DNA of 16,608 bases from Bacteroidales bacterium (GCA_028282585.1 JANQHR010000103.1:1-16608), one strand, 5' to 3'. Counted from the stretch's first letter, positions 8,029 through 16,608 are shown. Made by a program: numbers and translations. Notes: generated by a model from the letters alone, not told the origin.

Positions 8029-9090
8029 ATGAATAACTACGGTTCTGATCAAAAATCTGCATTAGATGCGAAAATAGATGCTCAAAAAATTGCGTTCGCT
8101 CCAATTGTTTTCCAGGCGGTTTTATCTTTAAGGAATTTGAAAATCTTGGAAATACTAGATCAGAATTCTGAAGGATTAACAGCGCAAGATATTGCAGAAA
8201 AAGTTAATATTTCAGAATATGGAGTAAGAGTTTTACTCGACGCAGGGTTAAGTGCTGAAGTGGTAATGTTAAGAGATAACAAATATCTTTTAACAAAAAC
8301 AGGATATTATTTTATTGCAGATCAAATGACAAATATTAATATGGATTTTGTTCAGGATGTTTGCTACAATGGAATGTTTTATCTGGAAAATTCAATAAAA
8401 AACAAAAAGCCCGAAGGCTTAAAGGTTTTTGGTAACTGGCCTACAATATATCATGGATTATCGAAATTACCAGATCAGGTTAAAAAAAGCTGGTTTGCAT
8501 TTGATCATTTTTATTCTGATAATGTTTTTAAATCAGTTTTACCAATCATATTTGAAGATAATAGAAAAAAAGTTTTAGATGTTGGTGGTAATACGGGAAA
8601 ATTCTCTTTACAATGCGCAAAGTACAATTCTGAAGCCGAAATTACAATAATGGACCTACCCGGGCAGTTAAATGTTGCTTTGGAAAATGCGAGAAAAGAA
8701 GGCTTTGAAAACCAAATAAAAGGCCATTCAACTGATATTTTAGATCATTCAAAACCTTTCCCGAAAAGATTTGATATTATCTGGATGAGTCAGTTCTTAG
8801 ACTGTTTTTCCGAAGAAAATATTTTCCAAATTTTAAAAAGAGCTGCTCAATCTATGACCGAAAATACAAGATTATTCATTTTAGAAACATACTGGGACAG
8901 GCAAAAGTTTGATGTCTCCACTTTCTGCCTGAATAATACCTCACTATATTTTACTGCCCTGGCAAATGGAAACAGCCGCATGTATCATTCGGAAGATATG
9001 ATTCGACTAATAAAAGAAGCCGGATTAAGGATCGAAACTATAACAGATGATTTAGGAATTAGTCACACCCTAATTGAATGTAAACTTTAA
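8029..9090 (+). CDS. SAM-dependent methyltransferase (O-methyltransferase family 2 with N-terminal dimerisation/wHTH region)
   Basis: SAM motif VLDVGGNTGKF, MDLPGQ and WMSQFLDCFSE. The N-terminus AQKIAFAPIVFQ recalls methyltransferases of aryl polyene/flexirubin-type clusters. Confidence 0.85.
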   Translation: MNNYGSDQKSALDAKIDAQKIAFAPIVFQAVLSLRNLKILEILDQNSEGLTAQDIAEKVNISEYGVRVLLDAGLSAEVVMLRDNKYLLTKTGYYFIADQMTNINMDFVQDVCYNGMFYLENSIKNKKPEGLKVFGNWPTIYHGLSKLPDQVKKSWFAFDHFYSDNVFKSVLPIIFEDNRKKVLDVGGNTGKFSLQCAKYNSEAEITIMDLPGQLNVALENARKEGFENQIKGHSTDILDHSKPFPKRFDIIWMSQFLDCFSEENIFQILKRAAQSMTENTRLFILETYWDRQKFDVSTFCLNNTSLYFTALANGNSRMYHSEDMIRLIKEAGLRIETITDDLGISHTLIECKL

Positions 9091-10689: not shown

Positions 10690-12291
10690 TTAGTATTTTG
10701 ATAAGATTTTAAGGAATTCACTATTAGGAGTAATCCCATCATCATCATCAGAAAATTCTGGTTTTAATCTGTTCACAAAGTACATATCAAGCTGAACGTT
10801 ATTTTTTACTTCAACCTTTCCACGATGGGTGCACTCAAAATAATCCTTAATGTATTCATACGTATCACCAGAAACATTAACTTTCTCTACCTCTCCTGAT
10901 TGCTCCATTCTGCTGGCCTTATTTACAGCATCACCCCAAATATCATAAGCAAATTTCTTTTTCCCTATTACCCCTGCAATAACTTCTCCGGTATGGATTC
11001 CTAATCGAAGCTCCCAGGGAGTTTCATTTTCTTTTCTCTTATTCTCCGCATAATCCCGCATAAATTTTTGAATTTTTAAACCGGCCAGTGTTACATCAAT
11101 TGGATTACTTTTATTTCTTAATGGAAGCCCTCCGGCACACATATATGCATCACCAATGGTTTTTATTTTTTCAATGTAATGTCCCTCAATAATTTCATCG
11201 AACTTTTGTATATAAACGTTCAGTTCCTTAACAAGCTCTTGGCTATCCAATACATTAGTTAGGTTCGAAAAATTCTTGAAATCTGTAAATAAGATGCTTA
11301 CTAGTTTATACTGCTTCGATTTTGCAAATCCCTTTTTCCTTAATTGCTCCGCCGTTTCAAAAGGAAGAATGTTTAACAACAACTCATCTGACTTCTTTCT
11401 TTGTTCTTCAATAAACTCCTTTTGTTTCTCGATTTCTTCCCGCTGTTTTTCCAAAAGTAAATTAGAACTTTCCAGATGTTCAGTCAATGTTATCAAACTT
11501 TCGTTTTTTGCTTCTAATCTTTCTTCTGCCTCCTTTAATGCCGTAACATTTGATTCTATAGCGATGTATTTTATAATAATATCCTGTTCGTTATAAACAG
11601 GAGTTAATGTTGTTTGTATCCATATAGGTTCGCCATATTTGGTTGCCCATTTTTGTTCATATAAAATACTTTCTGCTCCATTTTTACATTGCGTAATTGC
11701 ATCTGCTAGCTTTGGATTTTTGTTAGGGTCAAAAATAGTTGACTCAAATTTCTCTTTAAATTCTTCTAGAGTATAACCATACATTCGTTCAAACCCTTCA
11801 TTCACCCATTCTATTTCACTATCATGACTAATAATTACAACGCCCGTTGCCGTTTTCTTAGCAACAATTGAAAGTTCACGAAGAAGTTCATGTTCTATGT
11901 AAATCTCATGTTGGAATTCTTTTCTGCTTTCGGCAGCCTCAATTCGCATTAATAGTTCATCTTTGGTATAAGGTTTTTTTATAAAATCCACTATACCATA
12001 TTCAAAAACTCTATCAAAGTTTGTGCGTGGGGAATATTCGATAATTAAAATAACAGGAATTCTGTTAGTAGAATTATCCTGCTTTAATGACATAATGCTT
12101 TCTATACCGCTTTTAGCTAAAGAATCAACACTTATTAATATAATATTTGGTTGAGTTTTTAATGCAATTTGATATATTTCATTTCGCGCTGATCTAATGA
12201 TTTCAAATCTATCCAAATCATCATTTAGAGTTTCTTGCAAATAATCGAAAGAATTTCCATTATCACTTGCAATTAATATTTTATAACTCAT
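10690..12291 (-). CDS. Cytoplasmic class III adenylate cyclase with N-terminal degenerate receiver, PAS domain and coiled coil
   Basis: Catalytic motifs ILFTDFKNFS, KIKTIGDAYM and AYDIWGDAVNKASRME (Lys/Asp pair indicates ATP specificity); SDELLLNILP transducer element; PAS motif IEWVNEGFERMYGY; REC-like GIVDFIKKPY. No TM segment apparent. Confidence 0.9.
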   Translation of the reverse strand: MSYKILIASDNGNSFDYLQETLNDDLDRFEIIRSARNEIYQIALKTQPNIILISVDSLAKSGIESIMSLKQDNSTNRIPVILIIEYSPRTNFDRVFEYGIVDFIKKPYTKDELLMRIEAAESRKEFQHEIYIEHELLRELSIVAKKTATGVVIISHDSEIEWVNEGFERMYGYTLEEFKEKFESTIFDPNKNPKLADAITQCKNGAESILYEQKWATKYGEPIWIQTTLTPVYNEQDIIIKYIAIESNVTALKEAEERLEAKNESLITLTEHLESSNLLLEKQREEIEKQKEFIEEQRKKSDELLLNILPFETAEQLRKKGFAKSKQYKLVSILFTDFKNFSNLTNVLDSQELVKELNVYIQKFDEIIEGHYIEKIKTIGDAYMCAGGLPLRNKSNPIDVTLAGLKIQKFMRDYAENKRKENETPWELRLGIHTGEVIAGVIGKKKFAYDIWGDAVNKASRMEQSGEVEKVNVSGDTYEYIKDYFECTHRGKVEVKNNVQLDMYFVNRLKPEFSDDDDGITPNSEFLKILSKY

Positions 12292-12525
12292 AGAATTTGA
12301 AATCGTTTATAATTAATATACGAGTTTAAAAATATAAATTTTAAAACGAATTCGGTCGAATTTTAATTTTTTTTATCTGATACATTTTTACTGTTCGTAC
12401 TAATAATTTAAGCTTTCATCAAAATAAGATTAAGATTTAAACCAAAAATTGAAAATAACGTATATGGTTTCTGGTTAATTTACCGAACAATCCTTATTTT
12501 TATTTTTCAAAACTCGAAACTTTAA

Positions 12526-13764
12526 ATGATTTTCAAGTTATTAGTTTTAAATTTTAATTCAACAAGCATTGAAGGAATAAATTCTATTGTTAATTCCGAA
12601 TACCCTAATATTGACTTATATATTTTAGATCAACATCAAGATATAATATCCGATGTACAAGCAATATCACCTGAAATAGTTCTTTTTGATTTGGATAGCC
12701 AGTTAAATCATGAAGAAAAAAGTGAAAAATTACTTTATAGAATTAGTCATGATTTAAACTTACCCGTTATTGCATTTTCGTCGAAAAATTTGCATAAAAC
12801 AGCTTTTGAAGCAGGTGCAATTAATTTTATACAAAAACCTTTCAAGGATGTAACTTTAATCTCAAACCTAAAGTCTACCCTATCACTTATTGATATACAA
12901 GAAGCTATATATGAAAAAGAGCGCGAGATTGAAGAAAAAAATGTACGTATTCAATTTCAAATTGAAAATGAGTTAAAACAAAGAGAAATAATTATTCGAA
13001 AGAATAAGGAAGTAATGGCTGATATTCGTTATGCCAGTCGAATTCAGCAGGCAATACTTCCAAGTATCGAATATATAAACGAACATTTACAGGAGTATTT
13101 CATTTTACACCAGCCCAAAAGCCATGTTGGTGGTGATTTTTATTGGCTTAACTGTCAGGGTAATCGAAAAATCATTGCTGTTGGAGATTGTACCGGTCAT
13201 GGTATTTCAGGAGCATTAATGCATATGCTTGGTTCTGTTTATCTAAATGAAATTATAAATGCAGGCATTTATGAAACAGCAAGTGATATTTTAGAGCAAC
13301 TAAGAGATCATATTATGAGATCTTTAAATCAAACAGGAGAATTAGGAGAAACGCAAGATGGATTAGATATCGCTTTGTGTGTTGTTGATTGTAATAAAAA
13401 GAAATTGCAATACTCAGGAGCAAATAATCCTCTTTACATCATTAAAAATAAAGAATTAACCGAAATAAGAGGTGATAGAATGCCTGTTGGAATTCATGTA
13501 AACTTCGATAAACCATTCACTAACCAGGTTATTGATATAGAAAGTGATGATCAAATTTATCTATTTTCAGATGGATTTGCTGATCAATTTGGAGGTCCTA
13601 AAAATAAAAAATTCAGATACAAACAGTTTAAAGAATTATTGGTTAAAATTTGCCATGAGCCAATGAATATTCAGAAAGAAATTCTTAATAATTCGCATGA
13701 TAAATGGAGGGGATCCGCAGAGCAAATTGATGATATTCTTGTTTTTGGTATAAAAATAAAATAA
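12526..13764 (+). CDS. Receiver-like domain plus PP2C/SpoIIE-family Ser/Thr phosphatase (cytoplasmic)
   Basis: REC motifs PEIVLFD, LPVIAFSS and AGAINFIQKPF; YASRIQQAILP linker; PP2C motifs VGGDFY, VGDCTGHG, LFSDGFADQ and QIDDI. Confidence 0.9.
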   Translation: MIFKLLVLNFNSTSIEGINSIVNSEYPNIDLYILDQHQDIISDVQAISPEIVLFDLDSQLNHEEKSEKLLYRISHDLNLPVIAFSSKNLHKTAFEAGAINFIQKPFKDVTLISNLKSTLSLIDIQEAIYEKEREIEEKNVRIQFQIENELKQREIIIRKNKEVMADIRYASRIQQAILPSIEYINEHLQEYFILHQPKSHVGGDFYWLNCQGNRKIIAVGDCTGHGISGALMHMLGSVYLNEIINAGIYETASDILEQLRDHIMRSLNQTGELGETQDGLDIALCVVDCNKKKLQYSGANNPLYIIKNKELTEIRGDRMPVGIHVNFDKPFTNQVIDIESDDQIYLFSDGFADQFGGPKNKKFRYKQFKELLVKICHEPMNIQKEILNNSHDKWRGSAEQIDDILVFGIKIK

Positions 13765-13790
13765 CTTTAACCTTTGTTAATATTATAGTT

Positions 13791-15524
13791 GTGAGAAAAA
13801 TAGCAAAAATCATATTTATACTTTCCCTATTAAGCATATTTTTATGTGATTCTTCCTTTTCTCAAGATATAAAAAACGAACTTGCAAGCTATGAAACAAA
13901 AATTGAAAAGTACAAACAAGAAAATAATCCTTCGCTTGAGTTAGAATATTTAAATAAAGCAGCTTTTTTGTGCTGGGATAATCAAATGTACAATAAGGCA
14001 ATTAGTCATTTTAAAAGAGTTCTGGAATTAAATGAAAAACTAGGAAATCAAAACGGAGTTCTTTTAAGTATCAATTACCTAGGTGTAATATACGATGAAA
14101 CGCAAGATTATAATACTGCAATTGAATATTTCAAAAAAGCTTTAAATATTTATAAACGCTCTAATGATAAAAAGAATATTTCTTCTTCGCTTTTTAATAT
14201 TTCGCAAACTTATCAAAACTTGGGCAATTATGATGAATCTAACTCATCAGCTTTAGAAGGTGTTGAATTTGCCAAAGAAATTAATGATTTAAAACTGGTC
14301 AGAAGCTTTTACGGGATACTTGCTAATAATTACCAAAATCTTGGAAACTCTGAAAAAAGTATTGAATATTTCGACTTGTTTGCTTCAATAGATAAGTTTT
14401 TGAAGAAAGAAGAAATTAAAACTATAAAAGAAGAATCGGAAACTCAAGTTCAAAAGGCTGAACAGGAAAAACAACAAACTCAACAAGAATTAGCAAAACA
14501 AACGGATAAACTTAAACAAACGGAGACATCTCTAGCAAAAGTTGAAGAACTAACTAAGGAACAACAGATGCAACTTGAGTTAAAAGAATCCAAAATTAGA
14601 GAACAAGCCGCGCAATTGAAATTTGAACGTTTGGTTCGAAATATTTTAACCTGGGGAATTATAGCCATTTTAATATTTTTGGTTGCCCTTACTGCCCTTT
14701 ATAGAAAAATTAGATCGCAAAAAAATCAAATAGAAGAACAAAGGGATATTCTTGATTTACAAAATAAAAAGATTAACTCAAGTATACAGTACGCACAGAA
14801 TATACAACGTGCTATATTACCTGTAAAAAATCAAATAGAAAACTTATTTGAAAGTTTCATTATATACAAACCTAAAGATATTGTATCCGGTGATTTTTAT
14901 TGGTTTGCTCAGATAAAAGACACAGCGTTTTTAGCAGCAGTTGACTGTACAGGACATGGTGTTCCGGGAGCCTTTATGTCTATGATTGGTAATAGTCTAT
15001 TAAATGAAATTGTTTTAGAAAAAAATATTACAGAACCGGCAAAAATATTATCTTTATTAAACGAAAAAATAATTGAATCGTTAAGGCAAGACGAAACTGA
15101 AAATAATGACGGAATGGATGTTTGTTTTATATCAATTGATATAAATACAAAGAAAATAACATTTTCAGGTGCAAAAAGACCTTTGTTTATTTTCAACAAA
15201 AAAACATCCGAGTTTAATGAAATAAAGGGAGATCGATTATCAATTGGCGGTGCAAAAAGGAAAAATAAAAATGAAGAATTTAACAACCGCATAATTGATA
15301 CAGAAGCAGGTGATATTTTATTTTTATCGTCAGATGGTTTAACTGATCAGAATAACTCAGAAAGAAAAAGATTTGGAAGTAATAGGCTCAAAGAAATTAT
15401 TTTAAATAATATTTCGGAGCCAATGAATAAACAAAAAGATATTATTGAAAATGAGCTGAATAATTTCCAAAAAAATGAGGAACAAAGAGATGATATTACT
15501 TTAATTGGTATAAAAATAAATTAA
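13791..15524 (+). CDS. Membrane sensor phosphatase: signal peptide, TPR repeats, coiled coil, TM, PP2C/SpoIIE domain (SiaA-like role)
   Basis: Signal peptide ending SSFS-Q; TPR-like repeats (YLGVIYDETQDYNTAIEYFKKALNI); TM ILTWGIIAILIFLVALTALY; PP2C motifs VSGDFYW, VDCTGHG, SSDGLTDQ and QRDDIT. Confidence 0.9.
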   Translation: MRKIAKIIFILSLLSIFLCDSSFSQDIKNELASYETKIEKYKQENNPSLELEYLNKAAFLCWDNQMYNKAISHFKRVLELNEKLGNQNGVLLSINYLGVIYDETQDYNTAIEYFKKALNIYKRSNDKKNISSSLFNISQTYQNLGNYDESNSSALEGVEFAKEINDLKLVRSFYGILANNYQNLGNSEKSIEYFDLFASIDKFLKKEEIKTIKEESETQVQKAEQEKQQTQQELAKQTDKLKQTETSLAKVEELTKEQQMQLELKESKIREQAAQLKFERLVRNILTWGIIAILIFLVALTALYRKIRSQKNQIEEQRDILDLQNKKINSSIQYAQNIQRAILPVKNQIENLFESFIIYKPKDIVSGDFYWFAQIKDTAFLAAVDCTGHGVPGAFMSMIGNSLLNEIVLEKNITEPAKILSLLNEKIIESLRQDETENNDGMDVCFISIDINTKKITFSGAKRPLFIFNKKTSEFNEIKGDRLSIGGAKRKNKNEEFNNRIIDTEAGDILFLSSDGLTDQNNSERKRFGSNRLKEIILNNISEPMNKQKDIIENELNNFQKNEEQRDDITLIGIKIN

Positions 15525-15528
15525 CCTA

Positions 15529-16053
15529 ATGAATGATACAGTTTTAATTATGACGGGCAAAACTATCTTATCATATAAAGGACCATTTTACATCGAATTA
15601 ATTTGCGTATTTGGAACAAACATTAGAAATATTAATGATTCTTTTAGCAATGCCCGCAAAAAACTCTTTAAGATATTCATTGAGCTTTCACAAAATGTAT
15701 CTAATTATTCTGAAGATTTCCATATGGTTAATAATGTTCAACGAATTGGAGTTGGAGAACTTACTTTAAAAGAAACAGATACTTCATATATTTTTACTAC
15801 CAGAAATCAAGTAAAAGATAAAGATGCAAATATCCTGGCAGAACGTTGTGAATTAGTTAATGCATCGGACCAATTAAGATTAAGAGAATTAAAGCGTGAA
15901 CAAAGATTAAATTCTCCGGGAGAAAAATTTGGGGCAAGAATAGGATTGATACAAGCTGTAATGCTTTCAAAAAATAAGTTAGAATATCAGATAGACCAGA
16001 TAAACGAAAAATTTTCTTATTTTTCACTCACCGTAAAAGTTGATAAAAATTAA
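15529..16053 (+). CDS. siaB: SiaB-family protein kinase (DUF6272, GHKL-like)
   Basis: LSYKGPF, KLFKIFIELSQNVSNYS (E-x2-QN box), LRELKREQR and GARIGLI motifs. Lies between a PP2C gene and siaC. Confidence 0.8.
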   Translation: MNDTVLIMTGKTILSYKGPFYIELICVFGTNIRNINDSFSNARKKLFKIFIELSQNVSNYSEDFHMVNNVQRIGVGELTLKETDTSYIFTTRNQVKDKDANILAERCELVNASDQLRLRELKREQRLNSPGEKFGARIGLIQAVMLSKNKLEYQIDQINEKFSYFSLTVKVDKN

Positions 16054-16065
16054 ATAATTCATATT

Positions 16066-16455
16066 ATGGAAAATATTACTTTAACAAGCTCACCTACTAC
16101 GCCTTATTTCCCTGAAGTTAATTTCGATGTTAATAAAGGTACTTGTGAAATAAGTGGAGAATCGTACATGGAAGAGACTTATAAGTTTTATCTACCGTTA
16201 ATAAATTGGATAAAGGATTTCACAAATAATATTAAGAGACCAATTGAACTTAACATTAAACTTATTTATCTAAATACCAGTTCAACAAAGTGTGTATTAG
16301 ATATGTTAGAGATACTAAAGGATTATGAAGATGAAGGTGGAAAAGTTAAAGTAAATTGGTATTACGATAAAAGTGATCCTGATATGGTTGATGAAGTCGA
16401 AGATTTTGAAGCAGAATCAGGAATTAAGATTGAGTTAATCGAATTTGAACAGTAG
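16066..16455 (+). CDS. siaC: SiaC-family regulatory phosphoprotein (DUF1987)
   Basis: PEVNFD...ISGESY.E...FY.P...W, LIYLNTSSTK (Thr71 equivalent to the P. aeruginosa SiaC phospho-Thr in YLNTSS) and VKVNWYYD...DM...EDF. Confidence 0.9.
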   Translation: MENITLTSSPTTPYFPEVNFDVNKGTCEISGESYMEETYKFYLPLINWIKDFTNNIKRPIELNIKLIYLNTSSTKCVLDMLEILKDYEDEGGKVKVNWYYDKSDPDMVDEVEDFEAESGIKIELIEFEQ

Positions 16456-16476
16456 TCCGCATTTATAAAATCAAAG

Positions 16477-16514
16477 AGGCTGTCCAAAAAGTAAAAGGAC
16501 AGCCTTTTTATTTT
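16477..16514 (+). terminator. Terminator-like hairpin in the IS end, downstream of siaC
   Basis: AGGCTGTCC-aaaaagtaaaa-GGACAGCCT followed by TTTTATTTT, starting 21 bp after the siaC stop. Confidence 0.65.
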
Positions 16515-16550
16515 GTTGTCCCCTTAAAATTTACGATCTTAAGGGTCGGT

Positions 16551-16608
16551 ATGACAACAAGATCAAAGATACGATTTAAAGAAATTACTTGCCAACAGTC
16601 AGTACTGT
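16551..16608 (+). CDS. N-terminal fragment of a probable IS1182-family transposase (partial)
   Basis: Translates MTTRSKIRFKEITCQQSVL..., resembling the KI.F+.....Q.VLFP start I recall for Bacteroidota IS1182 transposases. Only 19 codons are visible. Confidence 0.6.
   Translation, partial: MTTRSKIRFKEITCQQSVL

Follow-up and report, generated by a model that had tools for sequence, protein, structure and literature searches.

Gene organization of the locus

The window analysed here, 16,608 nt in length, is an entire contig of an uncultured Bacteroidales bacterium (GCA_028282585.1 JANQHR010000103.1). ORF calling located on its plus strand a run of genes for two PP2C phosphatases, a DUF6272 protein and a SiaC-family protein, separated by gaps of 26, 4 and 12 bp, and on the minus strand a class III cyclase gene (10690–12291) that diverges from this run across a 234-bp intergenic region (12292–12525). 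The gene order and the spacings are those given by an earlier, sequence-only reading of this DNA.

The closest solved structures to the Sia-like proteins are P. aeruginosa SiaA, SiaB and SiaC. The first phosphatase (12526–13764, 412 aa) begins with a receiver-like region that stays below the Pfam cut-off, and the second (13791–15524, 577 aa) carries TPR repeats (TPR_12, 1.1e-20). Both contain a SpoIIE domain (PF07228; 6.8e-19 and 2.9e-25, respectively) and find their best solved match in 6K4E_A (1.6e-30 and 4.8e-38), an entry that its depositor titled 'putative serine phosphatase' and that we take to be the SiaA PP2C of P. aeruginosa; we accordingly classify both as SiaA-type. The DUF6272 protein (15529–16053, 174 aa; PF19788, 2.1e-27) aligns over its full length with SiaB, chain A of the SiaB–SiaC complex 6KKO (E=1.6e-4). 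It belongs to a distinct clade in the tree (support 100/100), within which E52, Q55 and N56 are invariant, and it keeps a Glu that aligns with the region of Glu61, described as the predicted catalytic residue of P. aeruginosa SiaB (PMC7647112). Because its Gly-rich box deviates, reading GARIGL instead of GAGLGL, we regard this SiaB-family protein as a putative kinase only. In the SiaC-family protein (16066–16455, 129 aa; PF09345, 3.5e-40), the stretch IYLNTSS falls opposite LLYLNTSS when the protein is aligned to P. aeruginosa SiaC (6KKO_C/6KKP/7E6G; E=4e-20), with Thr71 placed on T68, which bears out the conservation of this Thr proposed earlier; N70 does not vary among 26 relatives, and Y68 and S73 hardly do. 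Judged by these homologies, the run is a complete SiaABC-type module without SiaD.

Pfam divides the 533-aa cyclase into a receiver (Response_reg, 31.5 bits, just above the cut-off), a PAS domain and a Guanylate_cyc domain (1.6e-49), the last preceded by a signalling helix. No variation is seen across 29 aligned sequences in the metal-binding D337/D381, the adenine-specifying K377/D450 or N457/R461, and all six residues align with AC9/AC5 and bacterial adenylate cyclases; we take their roles from class III cyclases in general, namely two metal Asp, a substrate Lys and Asp, and a transition-state Asn and Arg. We predict an intact active site with specificity for adenylate. Its receiver is a pseudo-receiver: the acceptor position holds Ser in the window and A, N, S, T or F in five lineage relatives, and so is not Asp in any of the six. 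The idea that losing this Asp distinguishes the Sia-linked lineage was rejected: of 27 cyclase relatives outside the genus, 17 have the Asp and 10 lack it. A hidden SiaC-like domain inside cyclases was sought in 12 + 7 proteins with a SiaC HMM, and even relaxed thresholds yielded no credible match.

The 3′ side of siaC, outside the switch, had been read as a terminator-like IS end. A strong double hairpin is indeed present (-37.4 kcal/mol, z -6.7), in an interspersed repeat of ~107 bp at the contig end (16465–16572), and a terminator scan gave 0 sites because the hairpin loop is 11 nt long. The repeat has ~10 copies in the genome, of which four lie at contig ends, one of these being an inverted copy at positions 1–75 of the window. 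Since the copies share no sequence beyond ~110 bp, an IS end is not supported. Homology to the closest related locus ends at ~16481–16484.

Conservation of the cyclase–sia linkage

The sequence-only reading had proposed that a Sia switch may be rewired here to cAMP output. Two of its components stand, a SiaABC module without SiaD and an intact predicted adenylate cyclase, but the linkage between them proved to be conserved within one genus-level lineage only, which by that reading's own test counts against it. There, the divergent adjacency is kept in 24/24 same-genus genomes and in 33 of 37 related loci, whose SiaB identity goes down to 47%, and it persists despite one gene insertion and despite the loss of the first PP2C gene, which is missing in 6 of the 24 genus genomes, where the cyclase directly adjoins the TPR-PP2C. 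Since the entire lineage block is syntenic, including cdd, a glucosaminidase gene, fmt and ribBA in the flanks and an aminotransferase gene downstream, this conservation says little. The linkage has also been broken once: one genome (G273) retains both the cyclase and the sia genes but carries them on separate contigs.

Outside the lineage, no orthologous Sia module stands beside a cyclase (0 of 41 loci), and just 1 of the 61 loci that carry the window's cyclase subfamily includes a SiaC gene within 9 kb. SiaC is missing from the 9-kb surroundings of all 27 non-genus subfamily members of similar length, two of which adjoin a lone DUF6272 gene; REC–PAS–CHD was confirmed by Pfam in two of these 27 and PAS–CHD only in a third. 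The orthologous modules adjoin unrelated housekeeping genes instead (BipA, Sdh, Usp, a nucleoside symporter). A point in favour of cAMP output is that in one case (G036) the divergent gene encodes a Na+/H+ exchanger that carries a cNMP-binding domain. Most of the 17 SiaC loci of the window genome likewise have unrelated neighbours, and other SiaC paralogues have conserved neighbours of their own, as in a CheR-CheB-GAF-PP2C-DUF6272-SiaC cluster that is followed in dozens of metagenome loci by a ~1030-aa gene, a TerB-ABC transporter in the window genome.

These patterns speak for an alternative in which the switch is real and its target lies elsewhere or is no nucleotide cyclase at all, the cyclase being an independent PAS-sensor enzyme that adjoins the sia genes through inherited lineage gene order. 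We consider this a serious possibility, although one with appreciably less than an even chance. No alternative target was found, and the pairings and co-occurrence described below weigh against it.

SiaB-family genes beside cyclases in other lineages

In four other lineages, SiaB-family genes directly adjoin cyclases of the same subfamily. A DUF6272 gene stands directly beside the cyclase in 4 of the 61 non-genus loci of this CHD subfamily, where ~0.2–0.6 would be expected by a rough chance estimate, and elsewhere in the ±9 kb flanks in 0 of the 61. The tree places these cyclase-adjacent SiaB genes in clades other than that of the window's DUF6272. One of the pairs forms a conserved operon, in which a lone DUF6272 gene precedes a co-directional cyclase gene; it is kept in 18 of 19 informative metagenome loci, and we found no description of it in print. 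The operon's cyclases share 49–52% identity with the catalytic half of the window cyclase and vary in architecture (~400, 570 and 1300 aa), those of ~400 aa having a membrane helix and then a PAS-like region at their start. Since this two-gene operon belongs to a different SiaB clade, the pairing of SiaB-family proteins with cyclases recurs independently.

Co-occurrence of the module and the cyclase, proposed earlier as a check on the link, showed an excess. Among 248 non-genus genomes, 24 carry both, 10 the module only, 32 the cyclase only and 182 neither (odds ratio 13.7, Fisher p=8e-11), an association confounded by lifestyle and phylogeny. Nine of the 10 module-only genomes carry another PF00211 gene, and a class III cyclase is present in 33 of the 34 module-bearing genomes.

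Two further arrangements were considered and rejected. A tandem DUF6272-SiaC gene as cyclase partner has a cyclase within 9 kb in 0 of 40 further loci; such genes lie near a cyclase in the window's genus (3.5 kb apart) and in two other genomes (G039, adjacent; G040, 5.8 kb). A SiaC gene convergent with a CHD-HD cyclase occurs on contig C167, in G008 and in G015, but only 2 of 7 orthologues from other families have SiaC nearby (G031, 1.2 kb; G040, 5.8 kb). Word-based searches for fusions returned 0 matches of SiaC to longer proteins, hence no SiaC-cyclase fusion, and, among 120 listed of 133 longer DUF6272 homologues, no DUF6272-cyclase fusion, all 120 being tandem DUF6272 or DUF6272-DUF6272-SiaC; because the search was word-based, these negatives are weak evidence.

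Less likely alternatives: shared regulation and c-di-GMP output

An improbable alternative limits the connection between the cyclase and the sia operon to shared regulation, either through the divergent promoter region or through a common upstream signal to degenerate receivers, with no protein–protein control. The intergenic spacer, which measures 119–384 bp in the window and in 33 related loci, does contain conserved A/T-rich blocks in the alignment, and receiver-like domains stand at the start of the cyclase as well as of the first PP2C. However, no regulator site was found in the spacer, inspection of the alignment by eye revealing no Crp-type palindrome; the cyclase receiver lacks the acceptor Asp in 6/6 lineage members; and the PP2C receiver is sub-threshold and without Asp in G008, its whole gene being absent from a quarter of the genus genomes.

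As the sequence-only reading had stated, no GGDEF domain was detected by the Pfam scan of the 15 window ORFs. A siaD-like gene past the contig end was sought in relatives and not found. The custom HMMs used for this came from paralogues within the window genome, and the GGDEF HMM, made from one sequence, detects weakly, so that the negative is firmer where Pfam was also run; downstream of siaC these relatives carry genes for a class IV aminotransferase, a PD40 protein and a LytTR regulator. The window genome contains 17 SiaC genes, 5 cyclase genes and a single, degenerate GGDEF gene, located on another contig (C62) and unlinked to the Sia locus. The idea that the switch acts in trans on this 207-aa protein as a SiaD equivalent, to which its lack of a sensor, its short N-terminal extension and a match to SiaD (7E6G_A, 3.9e-14) among solved structures lend some colour, is very improbable and near-refuted as a general mechanism by its NGDEF motif, by its position between amylase genes far from any SiaC gene, and by its distribution, with matches (E<=1e-15) in 3 of 251 Bacteroidales genomes, an internal TAA stop in G008 and no orthologue found in G006 (98% complete), against Sia modules in 37 to 66 of the same 251, the window's own genome included. 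The GGDEF scarcity stated earlier for many Bacteroidota holds across this order. With this gene in 3/251 genomes, c-di-GMP cannot be the general output, and since Bacteroidales are almost devoid of diguanylate cyclases, their Sia modules must have other outputs.

Possible control of cAMP synthesis

Among single candidates, the divergent adenylate cyclase is the likeliest target of this Sia switch. That the SiaABC-type switch directly controls the cyclase, with cAMP as output, is a tentative proposal drawn from gene content and gene order, to which we give slightly less than an even chance. In such a scheme, the kinase and the phosphatases would set the phosphorylation of SiaC, and the switch would then alter cyclase activity by one of two routes. 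In the first, Pseudomonas-like route, unphosphorylated SiaC would dock on the helical linker between the PAS domain and the CHD (~aa 255–325) and stabilize the active dimer. In the second, a classical partner switch, the SiaB-like protein would bind or phosphorylate the cyclase, and unphosphorylated SiaC would titrate the SiaB-like protein away. The operons elsewhere that pair a SiaB-like gene with a cyclase and lack SiaC are a hint in favour of the second route. Complex prediction for the full-length cyclase monomer with SiaC, run without controls, gave a best score of 0.31 against a mark of 0.32, which we weigh in neither direction.

Three further features were counted against the link: the divergent orientation, without co-transcription, of the cyclase and sia genes; the number of SiaC genes relative to the cyclases (17 to 5); and the placement of the cyclase-adjacent SiaB genes in clades other than the window's.

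A broader proposition, that in GGDEF-poor Bacteroidales SiaB/SiaC switches regulate class III adenylate cyclases, with SiaB-family proteins as dedicated cyclase partners in the two-gene operon and the entire switch joined to such a cyclase in the window's lineage, is somewhat doubtful, with about one chance in three by our estimate. Were it true, a phospho-switch would control cAMP, which has no characterized precedent. To our knowledge, a role for the Sia pathway has been described only in Pseudomonas, as a switch for c-di-GMP and biofilm; here this three-protein switch is strongly expanded, with 17 SiaC genes in the window genome and modules in 37 to 66 of the 251 Bacteroidales genomes. Were the neighbouring cyclase, or cyclases at large, an output of these modules, this would be a new mode of bacterial cAMP control, and the many orphan PP2C, SiaB and SiaC genes of environmental Bacteroidota would have a first handle on their function. 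The proteins being small and soluble, heterologous expression offers a direct test of the idea although the organisms have not been cultured.

Comparison with known systems

The closest known system is SiaABCD of P. aeruginosa, which likewise combines a SiaA-type PP2C, a SiaB-family and a SiaC-family protein in one operon and has the LNTSS phospho-site. SiaA there is a membrane HAMP protein and the single phosphatase, whereas the window encodes two cytoplasmic ones with pseudo-receiver or TPR inputs; the window kinase differs by its altered Gly-rich box; and in place of the co-transcribed SiaD (stalk plus GGDEF), absent at this locus, a class III adenylate cyclase is encoded next to the module in the opposite orientation. 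SiaC is described as contacting the coiled-coil stalk via N67/T68/S69, and DUF1987 proteins are suggested to modulate neighbouring proteins (PMC8457831).

Partner switches with STAS antagonists also act on diguanylate cyclases, as in HptB-HsbR-HsbA-HsbD of P. aeruginosa and BgrSTUWV-BgrR of Sinorhizobium meliloti (PMC8457831). As would be the case here, a phosphatase and a kinase set the phosphorylation of an antagonist that modulates a nucleotide cyclase; those systems pair a STAS antagonist with GGDEF, whereas the window pairs a DUF1987/SiaC antagonist with a candidate cAMP enzyme.

RsbU/RsbV/RsbW and SpoIIE/SpoIIAA/SpoIIAB follow the same three-part logic of PP2C, anti-sigma-type kinase and phosphorylatable antagonist, and their kinase binds the output, which makes them the model for the second route above. 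Their output is a sigma factor, whereas none of the 15 window ORFs matches a sigma-factor family above the Pfam cut-off, the lone match being a sub-threshold Sigma70_r4 (16.7 bits, cut-off 24.1) in a methyltransferase ORF (8029–9090).

The lone DUF6272–cyclase operon of other Bacteroidales differs from the window in having two co-directional genes, no SiaC or PP2C nearby and a different DUF6272 clade, but shares with it the cyclase subfamily, the kinase family and the direct adjacency of the two.

Organization of the sia locus

ORF calling and Pfam searches of the window, which is one entire contig of a 4.89-Mb genome in 173 contigs, bore out the five genes and the spacings (234, 26, 4 and 12 bp) described from the sequence alone. 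The cyclase gene (10690–12291, minus strand) encodes Response_reg (31.5 bits; cut-off 30.2), PAS and Guanylate_cyc (1.6e-49) domains, and a 234-bp spacer separates it from a plus-strand run comprising a first PP2C gene (12526–13764; sub-threshold receiver and SpoIIE-type PP2C), a TPR-PP2C gene (13791–15524; starting 26 bp further on), a DUF6272 gene (15529–16053; 4 bp further on) and a SiaC family gene (16066–16455; 12 bp further on). The closest solved structures for the sia-module proteins were Pseudomonas aeruginosa Sia proteins. Both phosphatases matched 6K4E_A (TPR-PP2C, 4.8e-38; first PP2C, 1.6e-30), which we take to be SiaA-PP2C; the DUF6272 protein matched 6KKO_A over its full length (1.6e-4); and SiaC matched 6KKO_C, 6KKP and 7E6G (4e-20). 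The LNTSS motif aligned to that of P. aeruginosa SiaC, confirming the conserved Thr proposed at residue 71. At the level of homology, the parts list of the switch can be regarded as established. As described for P. aeruginosa in PMC7647112 and PMC8457831, the SiaC phospho-site is T68 in LLYLNTSSIK, and SiaC uses N67, T68 and S69 to dock on the SiaD stalk, which is a coiled coil.

In SiaB-like proteins of the window clade, the Gly-rich box (residues approximately 133–141 of the product of 15529–16053) reads GA(R/H/N)IGL, with GARIGL in the window itself, whereas P. aeruginosa SiaB and other DUF6272 clades have GAGLGL; this change may mean altered nucleotide binding.

Cyclase residues D337, D381, K377, D450, N457 and R461 were invariant in an alignment of 29 relatives. 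Because these six residues also align with the catalytic residues of adenylate cyclases, the enzyme is predicted to be active and ATP-specific; D337 and D381 presumably serve the metal, and K377 and D450 the adenine. The acceptor position of the degenerate receiver is Ser in the window and non-Asp in 6/6 members of the lineage (the genus-level group of the window and close loci), which makes phosphorelay input to the cyclase unlikely there. The acceptor Asp is kept in 17 of 27 relatives elsewhere, and its loss, which also occurs outside the lineage, is no unique lineage mark. Past the catalytic domain, a C-terminal tail, RLKPEYS..D..G..PN..F (10690–10780, residues approximately 507–533), is conserved, with P522 and N523 invariant in the 29 relatives.

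The contig ends in an interspersed repeat

Directly past siaC lies a strong double hairpin within an approximately 107-bp repeat (16465–16572), the first hairpin being followed by a terminator-like T-run. The genome holds about 10 copies of this repeat at 95–99% identity, four of them at contig ends, among these an inverted copy at 1–75 of the window. The copies on other contigs lie at C157:23327–23433, C160:45505–45612, C159:24657–24754, C147:75959–76054, C48:1–96, C45:63199–63298, C19:44367–44465 and C32:96213–96294. Similarity of the window to the closest related locus ends at approximately 16481–16484. The assembly was broken here by a small interspersed repeat, which looks REP- or MITE-like and with which no transposase evidence was found; the sequence gives no support for the IS end previously proposed past siaC. 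A search beyond this point in relatives for a siaD-like gene found none: the gene after siaC encodes a class IV aminotransferase, a PD40 protein or a LytTR regulator, and in no case a GGDEF protein.

Cyclase–sia linkage is confined to the lineage

Orthologues of the cyclase and TPR-PP2C were divergent on one contig in 24/24 genus genomes, although the first PP2C gene is missing from six of these. A scan of the species genomes of GTDB for DUF6272 of the module clade yielded 78 loci, 37 close (47–96% identity) and 41 distant (33–46%). The cyclase was directly divergent from the first PP2C gene in 33/37 close loci; among the remainder, one had an inserted aldehyde dehydrogenase, two were cut by contig ends and one (L165) had other genes, its genome keeping the cyclase orthologue (73% identity) on another contig with the cdd/glucosaminidase flank. 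This conservation weighs little, because the whole block is syntenic in the lineage, with ribBA, fmt, glucosaminidase and cdd on one side and the aminotransferase on the other.

No cyclase was found within 10 kb of the 41 distant module loci, whose neighbours were diverse. The cyclase subfamily of the window is present in 59/251 sampled order genomes, and among 61 loci from outside the genus, taken with 9 kb on either side (L099 having no called cyclase ORF), a SiaC domain was near the cyclase in only one. For the 27 non-genus cyclases of similar length (500–575 aa), no SiaC gene lay within 9 kb, and a lone DUF6272 gene adjoined two; Pfam analysis of three such cyclases gave REC-PAS-CHD in two and PAS-CHD only in the third, CHD being the class III catalytic domain. 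The sequence-only reading, which proposed a Sia switch rewired to cAMP output, had itself named non-conserved linkage as evidence against the idea; the absence of linkage outside the lineage therefore counts against it.

SiaB-family genes recur beside cyclases

DUF6272 lay directly beside the cyclase in 4/61 non-genus loci, from four different families and confirmed by Pfam, and nowhere else in the ±9-kb flanks of the 61 loci; 0.2–0.6 cases would be expected by chance, by our rough estimate from gene counts. In one genome (G039), a fused DUF6272-DUF6272-SiaC gene precedes REC-CHD; a lone DUF6272 gene lies upstream of the cyclase in G142 (L138) and G164 (L141) and downstream in G201. These kinases fall in other clades than that of the window. 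In a metagenome scan with these lone copies, 24 loci were of the G142 type (68–88% identity); the cyclase was immediately downstream on the same strand in 18 and clearly absent downstream in one, and five loci were cut by contig ends. Pairs of the G142 type thus form a conserved two-gene operon of other Bacteroidales (L268, L273, L279 and 15 further loci within L267–L290), laid out as a SiaB-family gene (approximately 190 aa), 100–220 bp and a class III cyclase gene. No SiaC or PP2C was found near the lone pairs. The paired cyclases vary in architecture (approximately 400, 570 and 1300 aa), their common part being PAS-linker-CHD, as in the window.

Co-occurrence, counted in 248 genomes after dropping the three own-genus genomes, was strong: module and cyclase were found together in 24, the module alone in 10, the cyclase alone in 32 and neither in 182, an odds ratio of 13.7 that is confounded by lifestyle and kinship. 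Another PF00211 gene was present in 9/10 module-only genomes, and five genomes without the cyclase subfamily were also without SiaC.

Other arrangements were observed. In G036 (C61; L055:7966–10935), the orthologous PP2C/TPR-PP2C/DUF6272/SiaC module has as its divergent neighbour the gene for a Na+/H+ exchanger of 989 aa that ends in a cNMP-binding domain. Proteins with DUF6272 in tandem, in some cases with SiaC fused to the pair (505–535 aa), occur in 66/251 order genomes, counting that of the window (C47:6250–12324, L041; also G008, L069; G015, L070; G039, L063); in the genus one such gene is 3.5 kb from a REC-CHD cyclase gene, with alcohol dehydrogenase and PBP1 between. A CHD-HD cyclase gene (approximately 470 aa) is convergent with a SiaC gene in the genus, with a gap of approximately 6–10 bp (C167:1–1822, L009; G008, L068; G015, L071); in other families SiaC lies within 1.2 kb of it only in G031.

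Output of the switch

The genome count proposed earlier gave one GGDEF protein and 16 cNMP-binding matches, together with 17 SiaC, 7 DUF6272 domains, 5 class III cyclases and 25 SpoIIE matches. The sole GGDEF protein (C62:10081–10701; L050:6082–6705) is 207 aa long, reads NGDEF at its motif, is free of sensor domains and is encoded between amylase genes. As it has matches in only 3/251 order genomes, its G008 orthologue carries an internal stop (TAA) and no match was found in G006, c-di-GMP is not the general output of sia modules.

The SiaC family is strongly expanded in this genome, many members standing alone beside unrelated genes. The phospho-site is Thr in 10 and Ser in 7; 6/17 genes are paired with DUF6272 and 4/17 have an adjacent PP2C, in neighbourhoods mostly unrelated to one another.

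We only tentatively favour control of the neighbouring cyclase by the Sia switch: the recurrent SiaB-family–cyclase operons, the co-occurrence and the cNMP-binding exchanger beside the G036 module speak for a cAMP output, and the lineage-restricted linkage speaks against it. The main rival, a real possibility that we place second, puts the target of the switch elsewhere and reads the cyclase adjacency as inherited gene order; other SiaC modules do have conserved neighbours of their own. One highly conserved cluster (C6:56000–72000, L038; metagenome loci among L295–L346) comprises CheR, CheB, a GAF protein, a GAF/PAS-PP2C (approximately 870 aa), DUF6272, SiaC, an approximately 1030-aa gene and two small genes. 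The approximately 1030-aa product is a TerB-ABC transporter in the genome of the window and, since a second SiaC gene (on C32) also abuts such a transporter, may be the target of that module. This arrangement fits the suggestion in PMC8457831 that members of the DUF1987 family may modulate the proteins encoded beside them, and leaves the case of the window undecided.

Control of the cyclase is of real interest because it is a specific hypothesis, cheap to test and now supported by independent SiaB-family–cyclase operons. Full-text searches of the literature returned no paper joining DUF1987, SiaC or DUF6272 to adenylate cyclases or covering these families in Bacteroidetes, and DUF6272 was named in none of the papers listed for DUF1987/SiaC partner-switching there. 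We suggest that SiaC phosphorylation at Thr71 would be set by the SiaB-like kinase together with both PP2Cs, and that the switch would then act on the adjoining cyclase by one of two routes. Because the SiaC-less operons suggest a direct partnership, the SiaB-like protein could itself be the cyclase partner, with SiaC titrating it. Alternatively, unphosphorylated SiaC could bind the helical linker of the cyclase, in the same mode in which P. aeruginosa SiaC binds the SiaD stalk.
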